64,000 nt of DNA from Planctomycetota bacterium (lineage in GTDB: Bacteria; Planctomycetota; GCA-002687715; CAIWVZ01), in the NCBI GenBank assembly GCA_044222185.1, contig JBGANV010000006.1:288001-352000 (forward strand), given 5' to 3'. The notes below the pieces were generated by a model. It was given only the letters and a program-made list of their open reading frames with translations. It was not told the DNA's origin and made no database searches. The position numbers were made by a program, and so were the translations under genes. How positions within the stretch are numbered: the first letter of the stretch is position 1; each line of letters opens with the position of its first letter. This document shows, piece after piece, positions 50,461-61,687 of this stretch.

Positions 50461-52053
50461 TCACCACGCGATGGTCGACACGCCCGTCTGATCGACAAGG
50501 CCCGTGGTCGTGGCATAGGCGACGGCGATCCCTTCCCAGGTCTGCCCGGCAAGGAAGGAGAGGGTTCCGGTGGGGACGATGACCGGCCCGCCGACGTAGG
50601 GGTTCGCCGTCGCGGGGAAGTGCGTGAGCCCGAAGTTCGTGGCGGGCGAGCTGAGGAACGCGAACCACGTCTGGTCCGGGACGAGACCGAAGACGGATCC
50701 CGTGCCTGGGCCGCCGGGCGCCGGCGTCGCCGAGAACAGAATGAGTACGTGCGTGGCGGTCGACGGGATCCCGCTGACCCCGAGGGCCACGTTGCCAGCG
50801 CCGCCGCCCGAGGTCTGTGCCACGAGGCTGAAGCCGCTCGCGGTTGGCGTGCAGGGGCCGCCCACGCAGCCTAGTTGGACGCTGTAGGTCCCGCCGATCG
50901 TTCCGTTGGCCGTGTCGAGCACGCCCGCGCTGTAGGTCCCGCCGACCGCGGCACCGTACGTCAGCGTGGACACGGAGGTGCCGCCAGTCACGGTCGTCGT
51001 CCCCGTCGCGACGAGCGCGCCGCTTGGTGAATGAAGGCGCAGTCCGAACTGGCTCGTCGACCCGATCATCGTCACCGTGATCGCCGTGCCCGCAGGCGCC
51101 GCAAACGTGTAGAGATCCATCTCCGCCGTGAGGAGCAGGCCGTTCAACGGCGGGCCGGGCGGCAGGGGAACCGTCTGGCCGGGGCCGTTCAACCGGTGAA
51201 CCTGGATCGAGTAGCTGAAGGGCTGGCTGAACGCCCCTGAGTCGGACAGGATCACCGTGTAGGTCCCGGCAGCGGGCAGGATGCAGGTCCCTGGGCCTCC
51301 CGGCGTCGTGGCGCCGATTTCCACGAGAAACGACCCGGTCGCCGAGCACACGATCGTTCCGTCGGCGCGGGCGAGCGCCACCGTCGCCATGACTCCGCCG
51401 ACCTTCGCCATCCGGATCGCGAGGGTGTCTCCCGCCTGCCCCGTGAATCGGACCGCACCCGTGCCGCCGATTCCGACGGCTCCCTGGGTCAATCGACCGA
51501 ATGCCGTCGGAACCGCCGTGGGGAGGTTGAGGCGTTGGACGTGGAGGACGTATCCCCCAGTGAGCGTTCCGTTGAACCCGTCGAACACGCGCAACGTGTA
51601 GACGCCGGTCGCCGGCAACAGGCAACTCGAACCCGCTGGTGTCAGCGCACCGATGGTCGCACCGAACCCGCCACCGGCGCTACAGAGGATGGTCCCCGTT
51701 GGACTTCTCAGCTGGATGGCGGCCCACAGGCTGCCGGACGTCGTCACTGCCCTGACGTACACCCGATCGTTGGCGGTGCCGCAGAACGTGTAGTTGTCCT
51801 GTTGTGCGGCGACGGCAATGGTCCCCGTCACCGTCTGGCCGTAGGCGATCTGCATCCCTGGTCCGCATGGCGCCTGGCCTTGGACCACGCCACTGGCCAC
51901 CACCAGCGCCAGCCCGAGCCAGATGCGGAGGAACGATCCTCGCGTCGTTCGCGGCGTGGCGGACGCGTGATCACGGCACCATCCCACTGGGGCTCGTCCG
52001 AGCGCGTGGACCGAAGTGACTGACGGTGAGGGTTGGGACGTCGCTCGAAACAT
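50461..52053 (-). CDS. Secreted protein with three PPC-like domains and C-terminal beta domain
   Basis: Signal peptide ending VQG-Q; repeated D.YTF.G.A.D...LPA.G.YT units; start uncertain. Confidence 0.8.
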   Translation of the reverse strand: MFRATSQPSPSVTSVHALGRAPVGWCRDHASATPRTTRGSFLRIWLGLALVVASGVVQGQAPCGPGMQIAYGQTVTGTIAVAAQQDNYTFCGTANDRVYVRAVTTSGSLWAAIQLRSPTGTILCSAGGGFGATIGALTPAGSSCLLPATGVYTLRVFDGFNGTLTGGYVLHVQRLNLPTAVPTAFGRLTQGAVGIGGTGAVRFTGQAGDTLAIRMAKVGGVMATVALARADGTIVCSATGSFLVEIGATTPGGPGTCILPAAGTYTVILSDSGAFSQPFSYSIQVHRLNGPGQTVPLPPGPPLNGLLLTAEMDLYTFAAPAGTAITVTMIGSTSQFGLRLHSPSGALVATGTTTVTGGTSVSTLTYGAAVGGTYSAGVLDTANGTIGGTYSVQLGCVGGPCTPTASGFSLVAQTSGGGAGNVALGVSGIPSTATHVLILFSATPAPGGPGTGSVFGLVPDQTWFAFLSSPATNFGLTHFPATANPYVGGPVIVPTGTLSFLAGQTWEGIAVAYATTTGLVDQTGVSTIAW

Positions 52054-52338: not shown

Positions 52339-53457
52339 ATGAGCCCGAACTGCACCGCACCGGCCTCTCGTCCGAATTCCGTCCTGACCCTGTGCTCGTT
52401 CGTCTTCGTGTTCGCCACATCGTCGATCTCCGCGCAGAACGGTGGCGGAGTAACCGCCGCCGACGCGGAGGTTGACTCGAGCGTGCGCAAGGCCGTCAGG
52501 GTCTGGCTTCGTGCGCGGGAGAGCATTTTCGTGCCGTGCGAGGGCTGCGATGGGAAGGGCGTGACGACCGTCATATGGACGGACGACGGGACCCGCGGAC
52601 TTTCCAGCAGGACGCGGCTTCACGACGGTTGCGGGGGTGTGGGCAAGGTGCTCCGACCTGCGGCACTGCAGGTCGTCAACGGCGTCTACCTTGGTGGCGC
52701 GGCGGAGCGCCCGGGACTCGTCGGCCCGCCACTGAGCGAAGCCGAGATCCGCGTCCAACTCCGGGCGGACCACCGGCCGAACGGGCCGAGCCTGGCGAGA
52801 CTCGAGGGTCGACTTGGAGTCTTGCACGAGCCCGCCGACGTGACGAACGTCGACATCGTGATGAGAAGTGACTTCCTGTCGTGCGTGCGCGTGACGACCA
52901 GCGCGGTGCCAGCGGTGACCGACTGGGTGCGTCTGGACACCCGGTGGTACCTCGTGGGCGAACGGGACCTGGGTCGTCTGATGGCGGATGCCGCCGGACG
53001 GGACGCGGCGCGTCCCGGTTTCCTGGCCGCCGGGCCGTCGAGTCTTCGGGAGGCCGACGCTCGCGCCGCCCGGCGTGCCGAGCGGTCGCGTGCATCCGGC
53101 GGTGACACGCGCCCCCACGTCGAACCACCGAAGCCGGCGTTTCCAACCAAGTGGCAGCGGTTCGACGCATGGGTCCCCACGGGTCTGAACTCGCTGAAGA
53201 TCTCCAACGCTCGCGACGACGTCATGATCGTCGGGATTCGGAGCGGCGGCTCGAAGGTCCGGGGCCTGGACATGGAGTTCCAGCCCCATGCGAAACGCAC
53301 CGTCCGCTTGCCCGTCGGGCAATACACGCTGCTCGTCCACTTCCCATCGGAGCCGGACTCCGTCTACACGGCGGGCGCGGTGGTGATCGGGCCCGACTCG
53401 GCGGCGGAGGTGACCGTGGGTGTCGCCGACGGAAACGGCCGTCTCAAGAAGCTGTGA
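52339..53457 (+). CDS. Secreted hypothetical protein with DnaJ-like zinc-finger motif
   Basis: Signal peptide ending ISA-Q; CEGCDGKG and HDGCGGVG; GGAG RBS. Confidence 0.65.
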   Translation: MSPNCTAPASRPNSVLTLCSFVFVFATSSISAQNGGGVTAADAEVDSSVRKAVRVWLRARESIFVPCEGCDGKGVTTVIWTDDGTRGLSSRTRLHDGCGGVGKVLRPAALQVVNGVYLGGAAERPGLVGPPLSEAEIRVQLRADHRPNGPSLARLEGRLGVLHEPADVTNVDIVMRSDFLSCVRVTTSAVPAVTDWVRLDTRWYLVGERDLGRLMADAAGRDAARPGFLAAGPSSLREADARAARRAERSRASGGDTRPHVEPPKPAFPTKWQRFDAWVPTGLNSLKISNARDDVMIVGIRSGGSKVRGLDMEFQPHAKRTVRLPVGQYTLLVHFPSEPDSVYTAGAVVIGPDSAAEVTVGVADGNGRLKKL

Positions 53458-53638
53458 CGCCCGATTGGTCCAGAACACGTCGCGCGCGAGATGAACCGAG
53501 CACCCAGGCTCGAAACTTCATTCCGGGAAGAAGCTGGGCGTGCACGACGTCTCACCTCACGTCAGGACTGACGCCTGGGTCCGGTCATTCCACCCCGGTC
53601 GCGCCAGTTTTCACCGGACTCGAACGGAGCACCGACCG

Positions 53639-53713
53639 ATGATTCGCCGCAACCTCTTGATGATCGTCGCGCTTGCCCTCTTCGTGCTCGTCCTGGTCCG
53701 CGTCTCGGCGTAG
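53639..53713 (+). CDS. 24-aa hydrophobic small protein
   Basis: GGAG at 53626-29, MIRRNLLMIVALALFVLVLVRVSA*, GC3-rich codons. Confidence 0.5.
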   Translation: MIRRNLLMIVALALFVLVLVRVSA

Positions 53714-53830
53714 ACGGGCGTGGGCCGGGTGATCGTCCGGCGCTGGCAGCCCTGACCCGTTGGCCGACCCGAGGAGCTTGATACCTTCGAGGCCCCGCAC
53801 CGCGCGCCGGTGCATCCTCGAGACAGGCTC

Positions 53831-54382
53831 ATGCAAATCAACGCACTCGACCTCCGCAAAGGCAACCTCGTCCGCTACGAGGGAAACATCTGCGAGGTGG
53901 TCTATTGGAACATCCTGAAGAACGACCGACGCCAGTTCGTCCAGATGAGGATCAAGAACCTCACCACCGGTCGCATCACTGAGCTCAAGGAACATGGCGA
54001 TTCGAAGTTCGAGAACCTCGAGAACGAGGTCGTCGAGCTCTCGCACTCGTACCGGGACGGCAACGACGACGTCTTCTACACGCCGGAAGGCGAGGAACAC
54101 CGTTGCTCGCACGACGTCGCCGCCGAGACGCTCAAGTGGAAGTCGGACGCCTACAAGGGCTTCGTCGTCGAAGGCCGACTCGTCACCGTGTCGCCACCGC
54201 AGACCGTCGTCGCCGTCGTGACGGATACGGCACCGCCGATGAAGGGCCAGAATCAGTCGGGCCTGAAGGACGCCATGCTGGACAACGGCATCAAGGTCCG
54301 CGTCGGCCTGCTGACCCAGGTCGGTGACAAGGTCCGCCTCGACCCGGACACGCTCGAGTTCAAGGAGCGCGTCACGTCGTGA
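53831..54382 (+). CDS. Divergent elongation factor P family protein
   Basis: ALDLRKG...FVQMRIKNLTTG N-domain and V.DTAP..KG...K.A.LDNG..V.V...VGDKVRLD...EFKER C-domain; PGKG absent. Confidence 0.88.
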   Translation: MQINALDLRKGNLVRYEGNICEVVYWNILKNDRRQFVQMRIKNLTTGRITELKEHGDSKFENLENEVVELSHSYRDGNDDVFYTPEGEEHRCSHDVAAETLKWKSDAYKGFVVEGRLVTVSPPQTVVAVVTDTAPPMKGQNQSGLKDAMLDNGIKVRVGLLTQVGDKVRLDPDTLEFKERVTS

Positions 54383-54433
54383 CCTGACGCGGGCGCGGGA
54401 GCCTGCACGGCGACCGCCCCAGTCGGCCTCGGG

Positions 54434-54844
54434 CTACACCGCCCCCCGCGAGCCCGTGAGCTCGCGGACGTCGTCCACGTAGGACGACTCCAGGATGGCG
54501 GACGCGCGGTGGGCGAGCGCCAGGCGGAACAGGCGCGCCTTCAACGATCGCGGCGACTCCCGCTGCTGGTTCACCGCTTCCAGGTGTTGGACGAAGTCGT
54601 CGCGCTCCGACGTCGTCACCTGATTTCGGAGCACGTCGAACGCCTGCATGGCTGCCGTCACCACCGTCGCCGGAGTCGACGTCCGGTCGAGAGCGGTGTC
54701 GATCAGATTCAGCACATGAACTGGCGGGCGACCTTCTTCGATCGCCGAGCGGATGTCCTGGTAGAGCGCCGGGGAACGTTCGAGGATGAGGAGGCGCTGA
54801 CGTTCCCAAACGCGCCTGATTTCATGCTGATCACGAGCTTCCAC
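54434..54844 (-). CDS. YbgA/DUF1722-like protein
   Basis: WERQRLLILERSPALYQDIR...ERDDF...LLxSxY-like ILESSY; GGAG RBS before GTG 54844. Confidence 0.65.
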   Translation of the reverse strand: MEARDQHEIRRVWERQRLLILERSPALYQDIRSAIEEGRPPVHVLNLIDTALDRTSTPATVVTAAMQAFDVLRNQVTTSERDDFVQHLEAVNQQRESPRSLKARLFRLALAHRASAILESSYVDDVRELTGSRGAV

Positions 54845-55047
54845 GCACCGGACTCCCTGCGGCTGCGTCGCTCGTGGCCAGATTGGCAGGTGGGCCCGAG
54901 GGATCGCAACGACGCGACGTCGATTCTTCTCGCTCCGACGACGTCGCCCGTTTCGCGACGCCCATCGTAGATGTGGCGCGCATCGTCTCAAGTCGGCGCG
55001 GCCCAGGTCAAGTCGTCCACGGAGCGCCGCCCCGGCCCGCGATCGTC

Positions 55048-55082: not shown

Positions 55083-57026
55083 CTGAGCCGAACGCGCTTC
55101 GAAGTTCTTGCCCGCATCGACGCGATCTGCGAGGTGTACGAGGCCGACCTTCGACGAGGCGCCGCACCGTCGATCGAAGCGCTCGCGCGCGGCTGGGAGG
55201 GTCGCGACCGGGATCTCCTCCTTCGGCACCTGCTCGAACTCGAAGCCGACTACCGGGGTCAGAAGGATCCGCCGACGCCGACGCCCTCCGCGGCCGCAGC
55301 GACGATCGGCATCACCTTGCCCAGCGGCGACCGGTTCCACGTCGTGCGCGAGATCGGGCGCGGCGGCATGGGCGTCGTCTATGAAGCGTTCGACCGGGCG
55401 TTCGGGCGCCGCGTCGCGCTCAAGCTCCTGCCGGGATCGATGCAGGCCGACGCCGCGCACGTCGCCCGTTTCCGCCGCGAGGCTCGGGCCGCAGCCCGCC
55501 TGCACCACGAGAACATCGTCCCGGTTTTCGAGGTGGGGGCTGGCGATACGGGCACGGCGTCCTGGTACAGCATGCTGTTGGTGGACGGCCGTTCGCTTGA
55601 TCAGGTCCTCGCGCTGACGGGCCGTGCCAACACCGCCGCGCCCGACAGTGTGGCGGGGAGCGGAGAAGGATCGGACCCCGATGCGCCCCACCGCGTCGAC
55701 CGCGACTTCTGCGAGTCGTGGCACCGCCACCGTCCACGGTATTTCATCAACGTCGCGCGGATCGGAGTCCAGGTCGCGGATGCCCTCGCCTACGCTCACA
55801 CCGAGGGCGTGGTCCACCGAGACGTGAAGCCGCCGAACCTGCTGCTCGACGGCAGCGGGACCGTCTGGGTGACCGATTTCGGCCTGGCGAAAACGGAGGT
55901 GACGGACATCACGAAGGCGGGAGACGTCCTCGGCACCCTGCGCTACATGGCTCCCGAACGCTTCGCGGGCCGATCGGACGCCCGCGCCGACATCTATGGC
56001 CTCGGCATCGTCCTCTTCGAGCTCCTGACGCTGCAACGCGCATTCGGGGACGGCGACTCGGCCACGGTCATCGGCCGGATCCAGCAGGCTGCGGTGCCGC
56101 GGCCGACGGACGTGGATCCGTCGATCCCGCGGGACCTGGCCCGCGTCGTCGAGAAGGCCATCGCGCGCGATCCGGACCAGCGCTACTCGACGGCCGGCGA
56201 GTTGGGCGCTGACCTCCGACGCTTCCTCGACGGGCGGCCCGTCACCGCTGAGCGTGTGTCGCCCCTGCGGGCGTTCGGCCTCTGGGCGCGTCGCCATGGG
56301 TCGCTCGCTTTCGGGATCGGCGTCGCTTCGCTCGTGGTGGTCGCGTTGCTGGCGGGCACCATCGGCGTGGCATCGTCGTTCCGGCGCGAACGGGACCGCG
56401 AGAAAGCCCTCCGTCAGGAGTCGGAGCGCACGCGCATCGCGCTGTCGAGTGCGATGTACGCCCGCGAGGTCTTCCTGGCTGGAATCGACGTGCGGGAGGT
56501 GGGCGGGCGCGCGCGCATGCGCTCCAAACTGGATGCAGCCGCAGCGCTGGCGGCATCCGCCGGGTTGCCCCGCGGGTGGGAGTGGTTCTGGCTCGATGGC
56601 GTGGCGTGGGGCGAACGGCTGACGAGGGACGAGCCCGCGACGCGCCCACCCCTGCCGGTGCTTCCGATCCGCCCAGCCGCGGCGGACGCAGCCGTCGCGA
56701 GCCCGGACGGCCGTCTCGAGGCCGTCATCGCCCCCGACGATTCGATCCACCTCGTCGATCGCAGCACGCACGCAACCCTTCGCGTGTTGTCGGGGCACAC
56801 CCGCATGGTTCGCTGCGTCGCCTGGCATCCCCGAGAAGCGCGACTGGCGTCGATCGGAGACGACGCATTCGTGCGCCTCTGGGATTCGGAGTCGGGCGCC
56901 GAGTTGCTCGCGCTGGTGCTTCCGGCATCTGGCGTCTCCGTCGCGTGGAGCGAGGACGGCCGCGAACTCACCGCGCGCTGCGACGACGGCGCTCTCCGGC
57001 ACTGGCGCGCACCGCCGCCGAAATGA
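55083..57026 (+). CDS. Ser/Thr protein kinase with TM and short WD40 region
   Basis: GRGGMG, VALK, HRDVKPPN, DFG, GTLRYMAPE; GH...VRLWD repeats; start CTG 55083 inferred, otherwise GTG 55134. Confidence 0.9.
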   Translation: MSRTRFEVLARIDAICEVYEADLRRGAAPSIEALARGWEGRDRDLLLRHLLELEADYRGQKDPPTPTPSAAAATIGITLPSGDRFHVVREIGRGGMGVVYEAFDRAFGRRVALKLLPGSMQADAAHVARFRREARAAARLHHENIVPVFEVGAGDTGTASWYSMLLVDGRSLDQVLALTGRANTAAPDSVAGSGEGSDPDAPHRVDRDFCESWHRHRPRYFINVARIGVQVADALAYAHTEGVVHRDVKPPNLLLDGSGTVWVTDFGLAKTEVTDITKAGDVLGTLRYMAPERFAGRSDARADIYGLGIVLFELLTLQRAFGDGDSATVIGRIQQAAVPRPTDVDPSIPRDLARVVEKAIARDPDQRYSTAGELGADLRRFLDGRPVTAERVSPLRAFGLWARRHGSLAFGIGVASLVVVALLAGTIGVASSFRRERDREKALRQESERTRIALSSAMYAREVFLAGIDVREVGGRARMRSKLDAAAALAASAGLPRGWEWFWLDGVAWGERLTRDEPATRPPLPVLPIRPAAADAAVASPDGRLEAVIAPDDSIHLVDRSTHATLRVLSGHTRMVRCVAWHPREARLASIGDDAFVRLWDSESGAELLALVLPASGVSVAWSEDGRELTARCDDGALRHWRAPPPK

Positions 57027-57124: not shown

Positions 57125-58939
57125 TCAGTTGAACGTGAAGCGGTTGACCGGCGTCACGACCATGTCGAAGGCCGGCGCGGTGACGATCCCGACGCCCATG
57201 AAGTCCAGCGTGGTGCCGACGGGGAGCGACGCGCCCACGAGCGTCCCCGTGGGATAGAGCGCCGGGGCGACCGGGTAGGTCCAGTGGAAGACGTTCCCCG
57301 GACCCGCGGGCACCGCGATGATGGCGAACGTCAGGGCGTCCGGGTTCAGGCCGAGACCGGGGCCGAATCCCGTCGGGAGAGACGTGTCGAAGCTCACGAG
57401 GGTGTAGCCCTCGCTGACGTTGGCCGGCACACCCGACAGCGACAGGCTCAGCGGCCCGCCACCCGCCACGTTCGACGCGACGACGCGGAACGGCGTGCGG
57501 AAGACGTCCGCGAAGCCGGCGTTGCCGCCGAACGACGTGCCGTTGTTGCCGCCCGTCGAGTCCGTGAAGTTGCCGTCCATGTGGTACGACGCCGCGAGGC
57601 CGTACACGTTGTCGAGCGTGGCGTCCATGTTGTTGGCGATGGCCGCACCCGTCCGGGCCACGGTCCACACGCGGACTTCATCGATGATGGCGTCGACCAC
57701 GGACCCCGTGAAGAGCGCATGCCGGCCGATGCCCATCGGATCCGACGACTGGCGCACGAGCTGGCCGAGCAGGGGCGTCGGCGAGTTGATCTGCGTCGTG
57801 CTGGCGGCGACGAGCAGGCCATTGACGTAGAGCCTGATGGCTCCCTCGGACGCCGAGTAGGTGCCCGCGACGTGGTACCAGGTGGACAGGGTCACGGGCG
57901 TCGACGATTGCACCAGGGCCCACCCGCATGGGCCGGCCGGACCAGTGAAGACGCTGAAGGCGAAGACTCCGCTGCTCAGGCTCAATTCCCAGCTCCGCGC
58001 CGTCGTGCAGGCGACCCCGTCGCCCTTTTCCACGATGTAGCCGCTGCTCGTGCCCGTCGGCATGACCCACGCCTCGACGGTCATCTCGGTCGCGTTCATG
58101 AGGCTCGCCGCGCTCGGCACCTGGGCGCCGTTGCCCGGGTTGGTGAAGAACGCCTTGTTCGGGACGTCCCAGCCAGCCGTGGCGGAGTACGTTGCGCCGT
58201 TCAGCAATGCCGCGTGATTCGTTCCGATGGTGTCGAGTCCATTTCCGTTGAAGTTGACGGACGTCACGAGGCCCGGCGATGAGAACGTGATTTCGGCGTC
58301 GATCGTGCCGCGGATCTGCGCCTGGGTGCGCGCGACGTTCCAGACGCGCAGCGCGTCGACTTCCCCGCCCAACATGTTCGGGCCACCAGCGATCGGCCCG
58401 ATCGTGCCGACGCGAACCGCCTGTGACGACTGGCGGAGTGTGTGGCCGGCCATGGGTGCCCCGGCTGGATTGTGGAGCGTCGTCTGGGATTCGAGCAGGA
58501 CGCCGTCGAGGTAGATGCTGGCGATGCCCGGCGAGCTGGCGTAGGTCAGCGCGACGTGATGCCACGTGTTGGCCGTCACCTTCTTCGTCGACGAGTTGAG
58601 GAACCGAGCCTCGCCGGAAGCGGCCGTCCCGAAGAGGAGGAGCGCCTCGATCCGCCCGTCAGCCGCGAGGAGGATGTCGTAGGCGCGATCGGTGAAGATG
58701 CTGCCGCCGTCGCCCTTCGTGACGAGCCACTTGGAGACGCCGATCTGGTTGGTCTTGAACCAGAACTCCACGGTGAAGGCCGTCGGATTCTGCAGCCCGG
58801 CGGCGGAGGGGATGCTGGCGAGATCGTTGGCCCCGTCCAGGAGGAGGGCCTGGTTCTGGGCCTGGGTCGTCGCGACGACCCCGCAGAAGGCGAGTGCGAA
58901 TGCGAGTGACATCGAACGACGGGATGTGACTGCGGACAT
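57125..58939 (-). CDS. Secreted protein with two LamG/concanavalin-like domains and C-terminal beta domain
   Basis: FTVEFWFK...WHHVALTY...YLDG...DALRVWNVART, repeated; signal peptide ending TQA-Q. Confidence 0.9.
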   Translation of the reverse strand: MSAVTSRRSMSLAFALAFCGVVATTQAQNQALLLDGANDLASIPSAAGLQNPTAFTVEFWFKTNQIGVSKWLVTKGDGGSIFTDRAYDILLAADGRIEALLLFGTAASGEARFLNSSTKKVTANTWHHVALTYASSPGIASIYLDGVLLESQTTLHNPAGAPMAGHTLRQSSQAVRVGTIGPIAGGPNMLGGEVDALRVWNVARTQAQIRGTIDAEITFSSPGLVTSVNFNGNGLDTIGTNHAALLNGATYSATAGWDVPNKAFFTNPGNGAQVPSAASLMNATEMTVEAWVMPTGTSSGYIVEKGDGVACTTARSWELSLSSGVFAFSVFTGPAGPCGWALVQSSTPVTLSTWYHVAGTYSASEGAIRLYVNGLLVAASTTQINSPTPLLGQLVRQSSDPMGIGRHALFTGSVVDAIIDEVRVWTVARTGAAIANNMDATLDNVYGLAASYHMDGNFTDSTGGNNGTSFGGNAGFADVFRTPFRVVASNVAGGGPLSLSLSGVPANVSEGYTLVSFDTSLPTGFGPGLGLNPDALTFAIIAVPAGPGNVFHWTYPVAPALYPTGTLVGASLPVGTTLDFMGVGIVTAPAFDMVVTPVNRFTFN

Positions 58940-59173
58940 AGGGATTCCTTTCCTCGAACGGACCATGCGTGGGAACCAGCCCGGGAACATCGGCGTCGGT
59001 GGCGACGGCCACGGTGGCACGCGCCATCCGGGACGCCCTGCGGGCCGGACACCCCTTCCTCACGCACGGGGGCGATCACCCCTCATGCGGCATGGATCTT
59101 TCGCGGCACCGGCTCCTTGGCGCTGGTGCGGAATCCCGTCGATCTGGCCGGCACGGCGGTGCCGAGCGGTCGA

Positions 59174-61687
59174 TCAGAGGCTCAGGATGGTCATGGGTTC
59201 GAGGTTCGTCAGACGGCCCGCCGCCGGAATCCAGGCCTGGCAGTAGATCGTCACGCCCACGTAGCTCGCGCCCGCGGGGACGATGGCTCCGAACGTGGCA
59301 GGACCATTCGCCGGGATGAACCCCGTCGTCGTGAATCCGAGGAGGTTCGGGTCGACCAGCAACGTGCCGGCGCTCCCGAGCGGAGTCGACACCGATCCGC
59401 CGGACGCTGCGAGCAGGTAGGCGGCGTTCGGCGGTCCGAAGATCTCGAGCGAGGCCGGGCGCCCGGGTCGCGGCAGGTCTCCGCGGGAGAGGTGGCGCAG
59501 CGTGTTGGAGTAGATCCGGCCGGTGCCAAGGAGGATGTCGAGATCTCCGTCCCTGTCGAGGTCGAGGACGTCGGGAGCGCGGAGTCCGAAGGGCGTTGCG
59601 GGCGGCACTGCCACCGTCGCGGCACCGGAGCCGCTTCCGAAAGTCTGCGGTGGGGCGAACGTGAGGTTGCCCAGGGTCTGGACCCACGCCGCGTTGCCGA
59701 TGACGTCCAAGTCCCCATCCTCGTCGACGTCGGCCAATCGGATTCGACCAAGGTCGCCGCCGAGGATGTTCCAAGCGAGCGCGAACGTCCCACTGCCGAC
59801 GTTGCGCCAGACCTGCCCGCCGAAGACGGCGTCGTTGTCTCCATCGCCATCGAGATCGCCGACGGCGACGCCGACTGCGGTGCCGGGCGCGAAACTCGTC
59901 GACTGGACGAAGACGCCTCCGCCGAGGTTCACGAAGAGACGGCTTTGGGTCGCGAGGCTTCCGGCGGCATCGGCTTCGAAGATGTCGAGGTCCCCGTCAC
60001 CATCCGCATCGCCGAGCGCGAGGTCACCCGCGAACGTGTTGGCTCCAGGTAGGAGCGCCGGTGTCCACGCGGTCCCGCCGTTCCCGTTCCAGAGGATCAT
60101 GCAGGGGACCGCCGGGGAGCCATTGTAGAAATACGGCCTCCGCGCGAGCGCGAGGTCGAGGTCCCCGTCCCCATCGAGATCTCCGGCGTGCGCCGTCCAC
60201 GTGTCCCCGCCTGCTGGAATCGTCGCTGCGAGACTCCACGTCCCACCGGAGTTCACGAAGTACTCGCTCACCGTTCCGAACGCCGGACCCGGCTTCATCA
60301 CGTCGAGGTCTCCGTCGCCGTCCGCATCGAACGCGATCCAGTCCGTCACCCCGAGGGAGGTCGGTATGGTTTGCGGACCCAGCTGGAATCTCGCGTTGCC
60401 GTCGTTCATCCCGGTCACGAGCTGCGTCGTGCCCGCGGAGGCCGTGAGGGCGAGGACATCGGGGGTGCCGTCGGCGTTCAGATCACCGAAACCATGGGCC
60501 CCGACGAATGACGGCGGCATGGCCTGGACGTGGGGTACGAGCGCGTTCTGACCGGTATTGAAGTACACCTCCTGCCGGAACGCGAGGAATGCGATGTCGA
60601 TGTCGCCGTCGCCGTCGAAGTCGCCGCGCGCGACCGACGCTGGTAGTCCCGATGCCTGGAGCGAGAGCGTCTGGATGGGTGCGGAGACCGCCCCGCTGGG
60701 GCTCACGAGGCGCAGATCGAGAGCCGCGCCTGCGCTCGTCACCAAGTCCGGGCGCCCGTCGCCGTCCAGGTCCACGGGTAGGAGGATCGCTGGAGATCCC
60801 GCAAGAGCGAGGAACGTACTCGCGAAGACGCCGCCCGGCCGCGTGAGCTGCACCTCGATGCCGTTCCCAGCGAGCGACGACTGGCGGGCGATCACCAGAT
60901 CCAAGAACCCGTCCCCATCGCAGTCGGCGACCGCGGCCTCCCGGCACCCGATCGCGGTGCCGAGGTTCGTGGGAGCGTACGCGAAGGTCCCTGCCGTGTT
61001 GACGGCGACCAGGCGCGCGGTTGCGGTGTATTCGGCGTTGAGTCCGACGACATCCAGATCGCCGTCGTGATCGATGTCGAGGAGGTGGACGATGCCGGCG
61101 AGGGGAGGCGTGGACGGCAGGCTCGTCGGAGCGTTCGTGAACGTCGCACTTCCGTTGTTGAGCCAGAGTGCCGCAGGCAACGGGATGTAGTTGTGGGGGG
61201 ACTGTGCGATCAACGAGAGGACCAGGTCCTGGTCGCCGTCGCCGTCGACGTCACCCGCGGCGATCGACACGACGACCGCGCCGAGCGCCAGCGTCGGTCC
61301 CGGGGTTGCCGCCGCGAAGAATCCGCCGCCGGTGTTCCGGAACATGAGAACGGTCCCCTGGCTGCTGAAGCCCACGAGGTCGAGACTGCCGTTTCCGTCC
61401 AGGTCGACGGCGCGGACTGCGCCGCTCCGGGCGAAGCCGAATGACGGGCTTCCGGACACGGCGGTGAACCGTGCCTGGCCGTCGTTGAGGTGGACTCCGC
61501 TGCTGCACACGAGGTCCTGGTCGCCGTCGCCGTCCACGTCGAAGGAGATGAGGGGCGCGCCGGCCTCAGCCGTCAGGGGTTCCTCGAGGGCACGAAAGAG
61601 CGGCGACTGAGCCGGCAAGTGCGCGCCGAGGACTCCGAGGGCGAGGAATGCGACAAGTCCGAGGATCGTCTTCGAGAGGGCCCGCAT
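59174..61687 (-). CDS. Secreted FG-GAP/VCBS repeat protein with C-terminal beta domain
   Basis: About 14 DxDGDGDxD repeats; signal peptide ending LPA-Q. Confidence 0.92.
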   Translation of the reverse strand: MRALSKTILGLVAFLALGVLGAHLPAQSPLFRALEEPLTAEAGAPLISFDVDGDGDQDLVCSSGVHLNDGQARFTAVSGSPSFGFARSGAVRAVDLDGNGSLDLVGFSSQGTVLMFRNTGGGFFAAATPGPTLALGAVVVSIAAGDVDGDGDQDLVLSLIAQSPHNYIPLPAALWLNNGSATFTNAPTSLPSTPPLAGIVHLLDIDHDGDLDVVGLNAEYTATARLVAVNTAGTFAYAPTNLGTAIGCREAAVADCDGDGFLDLVIARQSSLAGNGIEVQLTRPGGVFASTFLALAGSPAILLPVDLDGDGRPDLVTSAGAALDLRLVSPSGAVSAPIQTLSLQASGLPASVARGDFDGDGDIDIAFLAFRQEVYFNTGQNALVPHVQAMPPSFVGAHGFGDLNADGTPDVLALTASAGTTQLVTGMNDGNARFQLGPQTIPTSLGVTDWIAFDADGDGDLDVMKPGPAFGTVSEYFVNSGGTWSLAATIPAGGDTWTAHAGDLDGDGDLDLALARRPYFYNGSPAVPCMILWNGNGGTAWTPALLPGANTFAGDLALGDADGDGDLDIFEADAAGSLATQSRLFVNLGGGVFVQSTSFAPGTAVGVAVGDLDGDGDNDAVFGGQVWRNVGSGTFALAWNILGGDLGRIRLADVDEDGDLDVIGNAAWVQTLGNLTFAPPQTFGSGSGAATVAVPPATPFGLRAPDVLDLDRDGDLDILLGTGRIYSNTLRHLSRGDLPRPGRPASLEIFGPPNAAYLLAASGGSVSTPLGSAGTLLVDPNLLGFTTTGFIPANGPATFGAIVPAGASYVGVTIYCQAWIPAAGRLTNLEPMTILSL

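Follow-up and report, generated by a model that had tools for sequence, protein, structure and literature searches.

A 64,000-nucleotide stretch of a Planctomycetota bacterium genome (GenBank assembly GCA_044222185.1, contig JBGANV010000006.1, positions 288,001 to 352,000; hereafter, the window) encodes at positions 53831-54382 (+) a paralog of elongation factor P (EF-P) that belongs to a conserved clade of its own, in which the tip of the first domain is a short hairpin ending in an invariant Asp-Arg-Arg turn (KNDRR-type). On balance it is probable, if only by a modest measure, that the KNDRR-type protein is an accessory factor of the EF-P type which binds the ribosome, carries an Arg-Arg tip, has an altered specificity and probably works unmodified.

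The open reading frame (ORF) runs through 183 codons to its stop codon with no internal stop, starting from the ATG at 53831, which is the start position in every close ortholog; a GTG seven codons upstream (53810) is disfavoured as an alternative start because the starts of the orthologs align with the ATG. Residues 26-37, at the tip, read WNILKNDRRQFV. Compared with other EF-Ps, H72-S73-Y74 stands at the position of YLY, F82-Y83-T84 replaces FMD, E88-E89-H90 replaces YEQ, and K138-G139-Q140-N141 occupies the site of KGDT/KGNT. An initial annotation, made from the DNA sequence alone, had quoted the tip, HSY, FYT, EEH and KGQN motifs within a three-domain EF-P layout; all five motifs are found in place in the translation, and the layout agrees with homology to Pfam, NCBIfam and PDB entries and with an AlphaFold2 model and its Foldseek matches.

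The N-terminal domain matches Pfam EFP_N (PF08207; 33.3 bits, cut-off 23, E 4.9e-8, residues 5-58) and the C-terminal OB domain matches Elong-fact-P_C (PF09285; 40.6 bits, cut-off 25, E 2.1e-10, residues 126-180). The central OB domain is the most diverged part of the protein, with no match to PF01132 at E <= 1, and PF01132 is precomputed for 0 of 120 metagenome representatives of the family. The efp models of NCBIfam score the protein below their cut-offs (TIGR00038, 95.8 bits vs 185.8; NF001810, 98.7 bits vs 161), as do the EfpL/YeiP models TIGR02178 (49.5 bits, cut-off 264) and NF003392 (57.2 bits, cut-off 216). A sequence search of the PDB returned T. thermophilus EF-P as the best match (E 4.8e-16); the EF-Ps of T. 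thermophilus, C. thermocellum and others span E 5e-16 to 1e-10, E. coli EfpL follows at 3e-8, and a search of the ESM Atlas returned only generic EF-P clusters.

The AlphaFold2 model, built from 64 aligned rows of window and locus sequences, has the KOW plus two-OB arrangement (mean predicted local distance difference test score, pLDDT, 92.4; predicted template modelling score, pTM, 0.70). The top Foldseek matches in the PDB are all EF-Ps, with template modelling (TM) scores of 0.75-0.84 over 182-188 aligned columns; they include C. glutamicum EF-P (6s8z, 0.84) and ribosome-bound E. coli EF-P (6enj_w, 0.80), and EfpL (8s8u) scores 0.68. Because these superpositions on EF-Ps are full-length, the three-domain body is predicted to be intact, including the domain missed by Pfam. 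G11, Y74, F82, P123, K146, G153, G165 and R180 are invariant in all 64 EF-P-type sequences of alignment A2, and R180 sits in E-[FY]-[KR]-E-R, the counterpart of the G-E-[FY]-x-x-R ending in other EF-P types. The median isoelectric point of 41 members (5.26) lies inside the range of other EF-P types.

At the tip, DSSP assigns residues 19-30 of the model to strand beta3, 31-34 (N-D-R-R) to the turn and 35-43 to beta4, whereas the canonical EF-P of the same genome, modelled likewise (pLDDT 92.6), has beta3 at 17-27, a loop at 28-34 (A-P-G-N-W-R-A) and beta4 at 35-42. Overall, the KNDRR hairpin is thus shorter by one residue, its strands being longer and its turn tight, and it has four non-strand tip residues vs seven in the canonical protein. 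The standard for comparison in this phylum is the PGN[LW]R loop, not PGKG. The tip had been said to match no known type, and it does differ from the Lys-type, PGKGP and EfpL loops: K-N-D-R-R-Q contains no Pro or Gly and differs from the canonical Lys-type loop (seven residues, K-P-G-K-G-x-A, with a tip Lys and Pro at -2); the P-G-K-G-P loop of the unmodified PGKGP type is absent; and the hairpin is shorter than canonical and free of Pro, where an EfpL loop has more than seven residues, a tip Arg and a Pro three residues upstream. One part of that statement needs amending, as MAFFT pairs N-D-R-R with G-N-W-R of the native loop, the Pro being deleted, so that R34 corresponds to the phylum's conserved PGN[LW]R-type Arg and D32 to the tip Asn.

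The codon-facing loop of domain III is rewritten as well. D145 and T146 in loop I of E. coli EF-P touch the E-site codon at its first and second bases (PMC12856214). The family consensus for loop I is P-P-x-[KR]-G-(x)-G-G-S-G-L-K-D-A, which is glycine-rich and has no G-D-T. The window protein has PPMKGQNQSGLKDA at residues 135-148; the KGQN noted in the initial annotation is therefore correct for this protein and not typical of its family, since most members read [KR]-G-x-G-S-G and K-G-Q-N-Q-S-G is a variant longer by one residue.

When 61 related genomes were searched at the protein level, nine of them, the host genome included, gave a match of 54-100% identity, and the next best stood at 32% or less. 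In a survey of 401 Planctomycetota genomes, made by six-frame search with a profile of 8 orthologs and no selection on the loop, 24 carried the KNDRR-type at 240-358 bits; below a gap lay five genomes at 94-106 bits, which were PGNWR-type EF-Ps, and nothing more was found at E <= 1e-25. The carriers span six family bins (f1, 3/4 plus the host genome; f3, 4/8; f8, 5/12; f28, 3/16; f46, four; f57, four), and the gene is present in at least six GTDB families. A scan of GTDB species genomes with patterns derived from the loop, and hence biased to it, gave 30 loci, one of them in the cultured Saltatorellus ferox Poly30 (complete genome), and all are labelled Planctomycetota but one 'uncultured bacterium'. 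Of 366 candidates from a collection of 5.8 billion proteins, 245 clusters matched at E <= 1e-20; the 120 metagenome representatives are those among the matches listed for these clusters, and they are named 'elongation factor P' (many, from JGI) or 'hypothetical protein' (two entries from NCBI metagenome-assembled genomes). In a 50%-identity library the family consists of one full-length representative plus fragments, with 8 of 2242 matches at E <= 1e-30.

The pattern W-[NS]-x-x-[KR]-[NS]-D-R-R occurs in all 42 unique genome-derived sequences, every one with an intact frame and the members from the loop-independent profile survey among them, and W26, D32, R33 and R34 are kept in 119 of the 120 metagenome representatives, the remaining one having a gap. 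At position 30, 85 representatives have R and 34 have K; at position 31, 114 have N and 5 have S. Outside the tip, S73, Y74, F82, G87, E89, W103, G110, P135, K146, A148, L150, N152, D171 and E176 are found in 120/120, H72 in 107 and C92 in 105; W26, H72/S73, C92 and W103 are conserved in the family and absent from other EF-Ps. A crude estimate of the ratio of nonsynonymous to synonymous substitution rates (dN/dS, NG86 method) is 0.05-0.26 for the six closest pairs (amino-acid identity of 87% or more); the ratio is given for these pairs only, because a dS of just 0.27-0.43 at 55-70% identity shows clear compression of dS in a gene of high GC and biased codon usage. Flags of an internal TGA in two orthologs proved to be terminal stop codons, not pseudogenes or recoding. 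Several metagenome proteins (P0004, P0005 and P0013) begin as family members and continue as Arg/Pro-rich nonsense after about 95-120 residues, and seem to result from frameshifts in contigs or gene calls rather than from fusion. Other EF-P-like metagenome proteins at about 90 bits (P0020, P0024 and P0025) have further non-canonical tips, e.g. K-M-Q-Q-R-T-P, K-L-A-R-S-S-A and K-M-G-R-Q-S-G, which points to a diversity of tips beyond the described types that is wider than the KNDRR family alone.

Four EF-P types occur in the order to which the window belongs: PGN[LW]R, PGKGP (f2), EfpL with an S-P-Q-A-R-G-G loop (f2 and others) and KNDRR. In an unrooted tree of 92 rows that include E. coli EF-P and YeiP (quick IQ-TREE run, LG+C20+F+G4, support from the Shimodaira-Hasegawa-like approximate likelihood ratio test, SH-aLRT, only), the 41 KNDRR rows form one side of a branch with SH-aLRT 100, and EfpL (10 rows) and PGN[LW]R (29 rows) receive 98 and 97, respectively. 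Since the groups are defined by the loop, the tree was rebuilt without both loop regions (160 columns), and the KNDRR clade again received 100. The length of its stem, in substitutions per site, is 1.87 on the full alignment and 1.33 once the loops are removed, and the median tip branch is 0.14-0.16. The stem attaches beside the f2 PGKGP-type paralogs with support of 0-66, which the tree software flags as long branches meeting, so that the point at which the clade joins the remaining EF-Ps is weakly supported; the PGKGP-type sequences of the same order occupy other branches of the tree. The separate clade and the invariant loop bear out the proposal of the initial annotation that this is a distinct EF-P subfamily: within the 92-row sample the KNDRR-type nests neither in EfpL nor in any other type, and decay of the loop among orthologs is not seen, D-R-R being present in 119/120.

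Among sequences sampled from the phylum, PGN[LW]R is the usual type (29/51 non-KNDRR rows of the tree). The f2 paralogs with a PGKGP tip (L020, L030, L089, L093 and L096, from genomes G010, G016, G014, G020 and G005) have V-K-A-A-K or V-K-S-V-K where KGDT is expected and F-S-Y-R in domain II, and their genomes hold three EF-P-type genes, namely PGN[LW]R, the PGKGP paralog and EfpL.

The KNDRR-type gene accompanies an ordinary EF-P. A canonical efp, whose presence elsewhere in the genome the initial annotation had left to be checked, is found in the host genome (G000) at C1:600749-601300 (L001:1498-2058 +), with 206.6 bits, above the TIGR00038 cut-off, and the loop APGNWRA. Each of 15 further carriers (15/15) has at least one efp over that cut-off, its KNDRR paralog scoring 88-106 bits, and the other 8 carriers each have a PGN[LW]R EF-P, so that an ordinary EF-P is present in all 24 carriers.

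Genes for EF-P modification were sought by six-frame search of the whole host genome (93.8% complete), window included. No match to epmB was found, the E. coli control passing the cut-off, and the best match to the epmA model, in a frame of 780 aa that is taken to be a putative lysyl-tRNA synthetase, scored 200.8 bits where the cut-off is 286.9; the combination of tip Lys, epmA and epmB that marks the EpmAB type is absent. The EarP search (PF10093), which bears on the EarP type with its tip Arg and an earP gene in the genome, was silent in G000, in the 401 phylum genomes and in all 14 controls, and is uninformative for that reason. The earlier observation that the window holds no epmA, epmB or earP can accordingly be extended to the genome for epmB and for an epmA over the cut-off; for earP, the search that would extend it was silent in its controls too. 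A protein resembling deoxyhypusine synthase (DHS; PF01916, 177 bits) is encoded at C1:525981-526883, on a contig other than the window's. Asn-tip EF-Ps co-occur with DHS-like genes (Volkwein et al., 2019; PMC6544042), and the host's Asn-tip EF-P and DHS-like gene are consistent with that co-occurrence.

The coordinates of the gene, its parts and its neighbours are collected in Table 1.

Table 1. Features of the window discussed in the text (positions within the window)
Feature	Coordinates	Strand	Basis or remark
KNDRR-type EF-P paralog, complete gene	53831..54382	+	open frame of 183 aa plus stop; EF-P homology; predicted three-domain fold
Domain I, KOW-like, about residues 1-64	53831..54022	+	Pfam EFP_N at residues 5-58; DSSP strands on the model
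beta3-turn-beta4 tip, residues 26-37, WNILKNDRRQFV	53906..53941	+	DSSP on the model; turn N31-D32-R33-R34
Domain II, central OB, about residues 65-125; HSY, VFY, G-x-E-x-R-C, W103	54023..54205	+	model fold; conservation
Domain III, C-terminal OB, residues 126-183, conserved E-[FY]-[KR]-E-R end	54206..54379	+	Pfam Elong-fact-P_C
Domain III loop I, residues 135-148, PPMKGQNQSGLKDA	54233..54274	+	alignments; 1-2 residues shorter than canonical, no Asp-Thr pair
PPC-domain protein	50461-52053	-	window neighbour
DUF1722 protein	54434-54991	-	window neighbour; recurs in the two closest loci only
Ser/Thr protein kinase fused to WD40 repeats	55134-57026	+	window neighbour
Laminin_G_3 protein	57125-59020	-	window neighbour
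FG-GAP repeat protein	59174-61687	-	window neighbour

All ORFs within 6 kb on either side of the gene at 31 loci were clustered by BLAST, and no neighbour is common to all 31. One ORF cluster lies directly downstream of the paralog in 14/31 loci and was confirmed as ApaG (DUF525) in the two loci scanned; an M28 peptidase lies upstream in 13/31 (examples of this arrangement are at L039:7021-7464 (+) and L040:6545-7633 (+)), and both ApaG and M28 are absent from the window. A small hydrophobic ORF of 24 codons that begins MIRRNLL (53640-53713, +) precedes the gene in the window, and no comparable small ORF was found upstream of 22 orthologs, save an unrelated one in L058; Rfam gave no match within 53000-55000. 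Contigs assembled from four metatranscriptome runs cover 53777-53927 (X15, 0 differences, across the start codon) and 53977-54181 (X19, 1 difference), and contigs from three RNA libraries cover the upstream stretch 53499-53769 with no differences. These contigs give a weak hint that the KNDRR-type gene is transcribed, weak because assembled RNA-library contigs may stem from DNA carry-over.

If the KNDRR-type protein is an accessory factor, it would have the same three-domain body as EF-P, which is L-shaped, acidic and tRNA-like, and its most likely docking place would be that of EF-P, between the ribosomal P and E sites; the retained body, charge, length and universal positions argue that it still acts at that site. 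A tight four-residue Asn-Asp-Arg-Arg turn on a longer, stiffer hairpin would take the place of the seven-residue loop with its modified Lys or Arg, and the unmodified, stiff Arg-Arg tip may contact the P-site tRNA at its CCA end, the invariance of the turn arguing for a specific contact there. Base-specific reading of the E-site codon would be lost and the surface of domain II altered, and with tip, domain III loop and domain II all rewritten, the substrate range (tRNA and/or mRNA context) should differ from that of PGN[LW]R EF-Ps. That an Arg tip can work unmodified has precedent in EfpL (PMC11611912) and in several unmodified Arg-type EF-Ps that are functional in E. coli (PMC12931083). A bolder form of this proposal, which we put forward tentatively and think rather doubtful, is that the family may be a fourth mechanistic class: an unmodified tRNA mimic that would place a rigid Asp-Arg-Arg beta-turn at the peptidyl-transferase centre, would not read the E-site codon, would serve clients other than polyproline (a different tRNA, a different class of stall, or ribosomes in a paused or hibernating state), and would have been missed by censuses that require three Pfam domains.

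Several points weigh against an accessory factor of this kind. Ribosome binding is deduced from sequence and a predicted model, and the divergence of domain II, in which PF01132 fails, could mean that the normal contacts with uL1 or tRNA have been lost. Whether the tip reaches the CCA end is uncertain, because the hairpin has one residue fewer than the canonical one and the side chain of Arg, if unmodified, does not extend as far as beta-lysyl-lysine; nor do tips that contact nucleic acid usually carry an invariant Asp at their apex. Absence of a modifying enzyme cannot be shown with EarP controls that are silent and novel enzymes beyond the reach of the search. The 31 loci supply no functional context from a conserved neighbour, and the RNA-library contigs could be carried-over DNA.

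The same rewritten loops could be read as those of a competitive regulator or antagonist, which would fill the EF-P site and not stimulate peptide-bond formation, and would thereby modulate or obstruct the housekeeping EF-P, or keep ribosomes paused or idle. Retention of the body while both functional loops changed, the acidic Asp at the tip apex, the loss of the Asp-Thr pair by which the E-site codon is read and the constant presence of a normal EF-P all fit such a role, and binding of EF-P alone can give mild pauses (PMC12856214). A pure blocker, however, needs no invariant D-R-R, and its conservation in 119/120 implies a specific contact at the tip; nor do the 31 loci offer a regulatory context or a conserved partner gene. 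We consider this role unlikely. Equally unlikely, in our judgement, is a modified factor, in which R33, R34 or K/R30 would bear a novel modification made by an enzyme encoded elsewhere, as with EpmAB, EarP and YmfI. The modification status of about half of bacterial EF-Ps is unknown (PMC11388002, PMC13602936), and the host's DHS-like protein could be seen as a candidate, such proteins being tied to Lys- and Asn-tip EF-Ps (PMC6544042), but that gene lies on a different contig and is more simply tied to the Asn-tip housekeeping EF-P. No candidate enzyme adjoins the gene in any of the 31 loci, the host genome is without epmB or an epmA over the cut-off, and the tight four-residue turn is akin to the 'built-in rigidity' of unmodified types.

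A departure from the ribosome altogether, giving for instance a factor that binds RNA or protein on a reused KOW plus two-OB scaffold, would account for the very long stem (1.3-1.9 substitutions per site), for a domain II that Pfam cannot recognise and for the novel invariant W26, H72/S73, C92 and W103. It sits poorly with the retained length, domain order, acidic charge and universal EF-P positions, including the C-terminal Arg, and with best structural matches that are full-length EF-Ps, one of them ribosome-bound; we rate it as improbable, somewhat more so than an antagonist or a modified factor. That the gene is a functionless decaying duplicate or an annotation artefact could be suspected from its low scores on curated EF-P models and from the label 'hypothetical protein' on two NCBI members, but 42 intact frames, motifs invariant across 120 representatives, the dN/dS of 0.05-0.26 and the spread over at least six GTDB families effectively refute it, and we give it almost no credence. 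An accessory EF-P-type factor remains the reading that we favour.

The catalogued solutions at the tip of EF-P are modified residues (beta-lysyl-Lys, rhamnosyl-Arg and aminopentanol-Lys), a rigid loop in the PGKGP type and, in EfpL, an Arg loop that is extended. The KNDRR family adds a different one, a shortened hairpin with an invariant Asp-Arg-Arg turn combined with a shortened codon-facing loop, and it occurs where the primary EF-P is itself a poorly understood Asn-tip type. It could reveal where in EF-P the substrate specificity is determined and whether EF-P truly depends on a tip that is modified or long, and its function is testable by genetics, ribosome profiling and cryo-electron microscopy because Saltatorellus ferox Poly30 is non-pathogenic, is in culture and has a complete genome. 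In the literature searched, on EF-P paralogs, tip loops and Planctomycetota, EfpL is the sole EF-P paralog family found described, and the parts of those papers that were covered contain no shortened D-R-R loop type, although supplementary tables may hold members. The census of Sieber et al. (2024; PMC11611912) required all three Pfam domains at E <= 0.001 and would have missed the KNDRR family, whose middle domain fails PF01132. KEGG K02356 annotations were the starting point for Brewer and Wagner, in whose work about half of the EF-Ps stayed 'unknown type'; as JGI annotates many members as elongation factor P, some could sit among the 'unknown type' EF-Ps in published family tables.

Among known systems, EfpL is like the KNDRR-type in being encoded by a second EF-P-type gene alongside the primary EF-P, with an Arg at or near the tip, a three-domain fold and no adjoining modification gene, and it is likewise found in Planctomycetota. 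The EfpL loop is stretched by two residues (9 aa, SPTARGAAT), with Pro three before the tip Arg (PMC11611912), whereas the KNDRR-type goes the opposite way, to a shortened hairpin with a four-residue turn and no Pro, and its domain III loop is shortened where that of EfpL (K-G-x-S/T-A) has normal length. The PGN[LW]R EF-P of Planctomycetota is found in the same genomes and retains YLY, FMD, YEQ and KGNT; the host genome's own copy, which scores above the TIGR00038 cut-off, is 22-24% identical to the KNDRR-type protein. With the PGKGP type of Actinobacteria (Pinheiro 2020 and Tomasiunaite 2024, as cited in reviews) the proposed shared principle is a stiffened tip that works unmodified, and the highest Foldseek TM (0.84) is the one to C. 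glutamicum EF-P (6s8z), although that type has a seven-residue loop with the tip Lys flanked by prolines, and the KNDRR apex has neither Pro nor Lys. The unmodified Arg-type EF-Ps tried in E. coli (PMC12931083) also have Arg tips and no known modifier, and some are second copies; their loops are standard or extended, and the main-text portions covered contain no D-R-R turn of the kind that is invariant in the KNDRR family.

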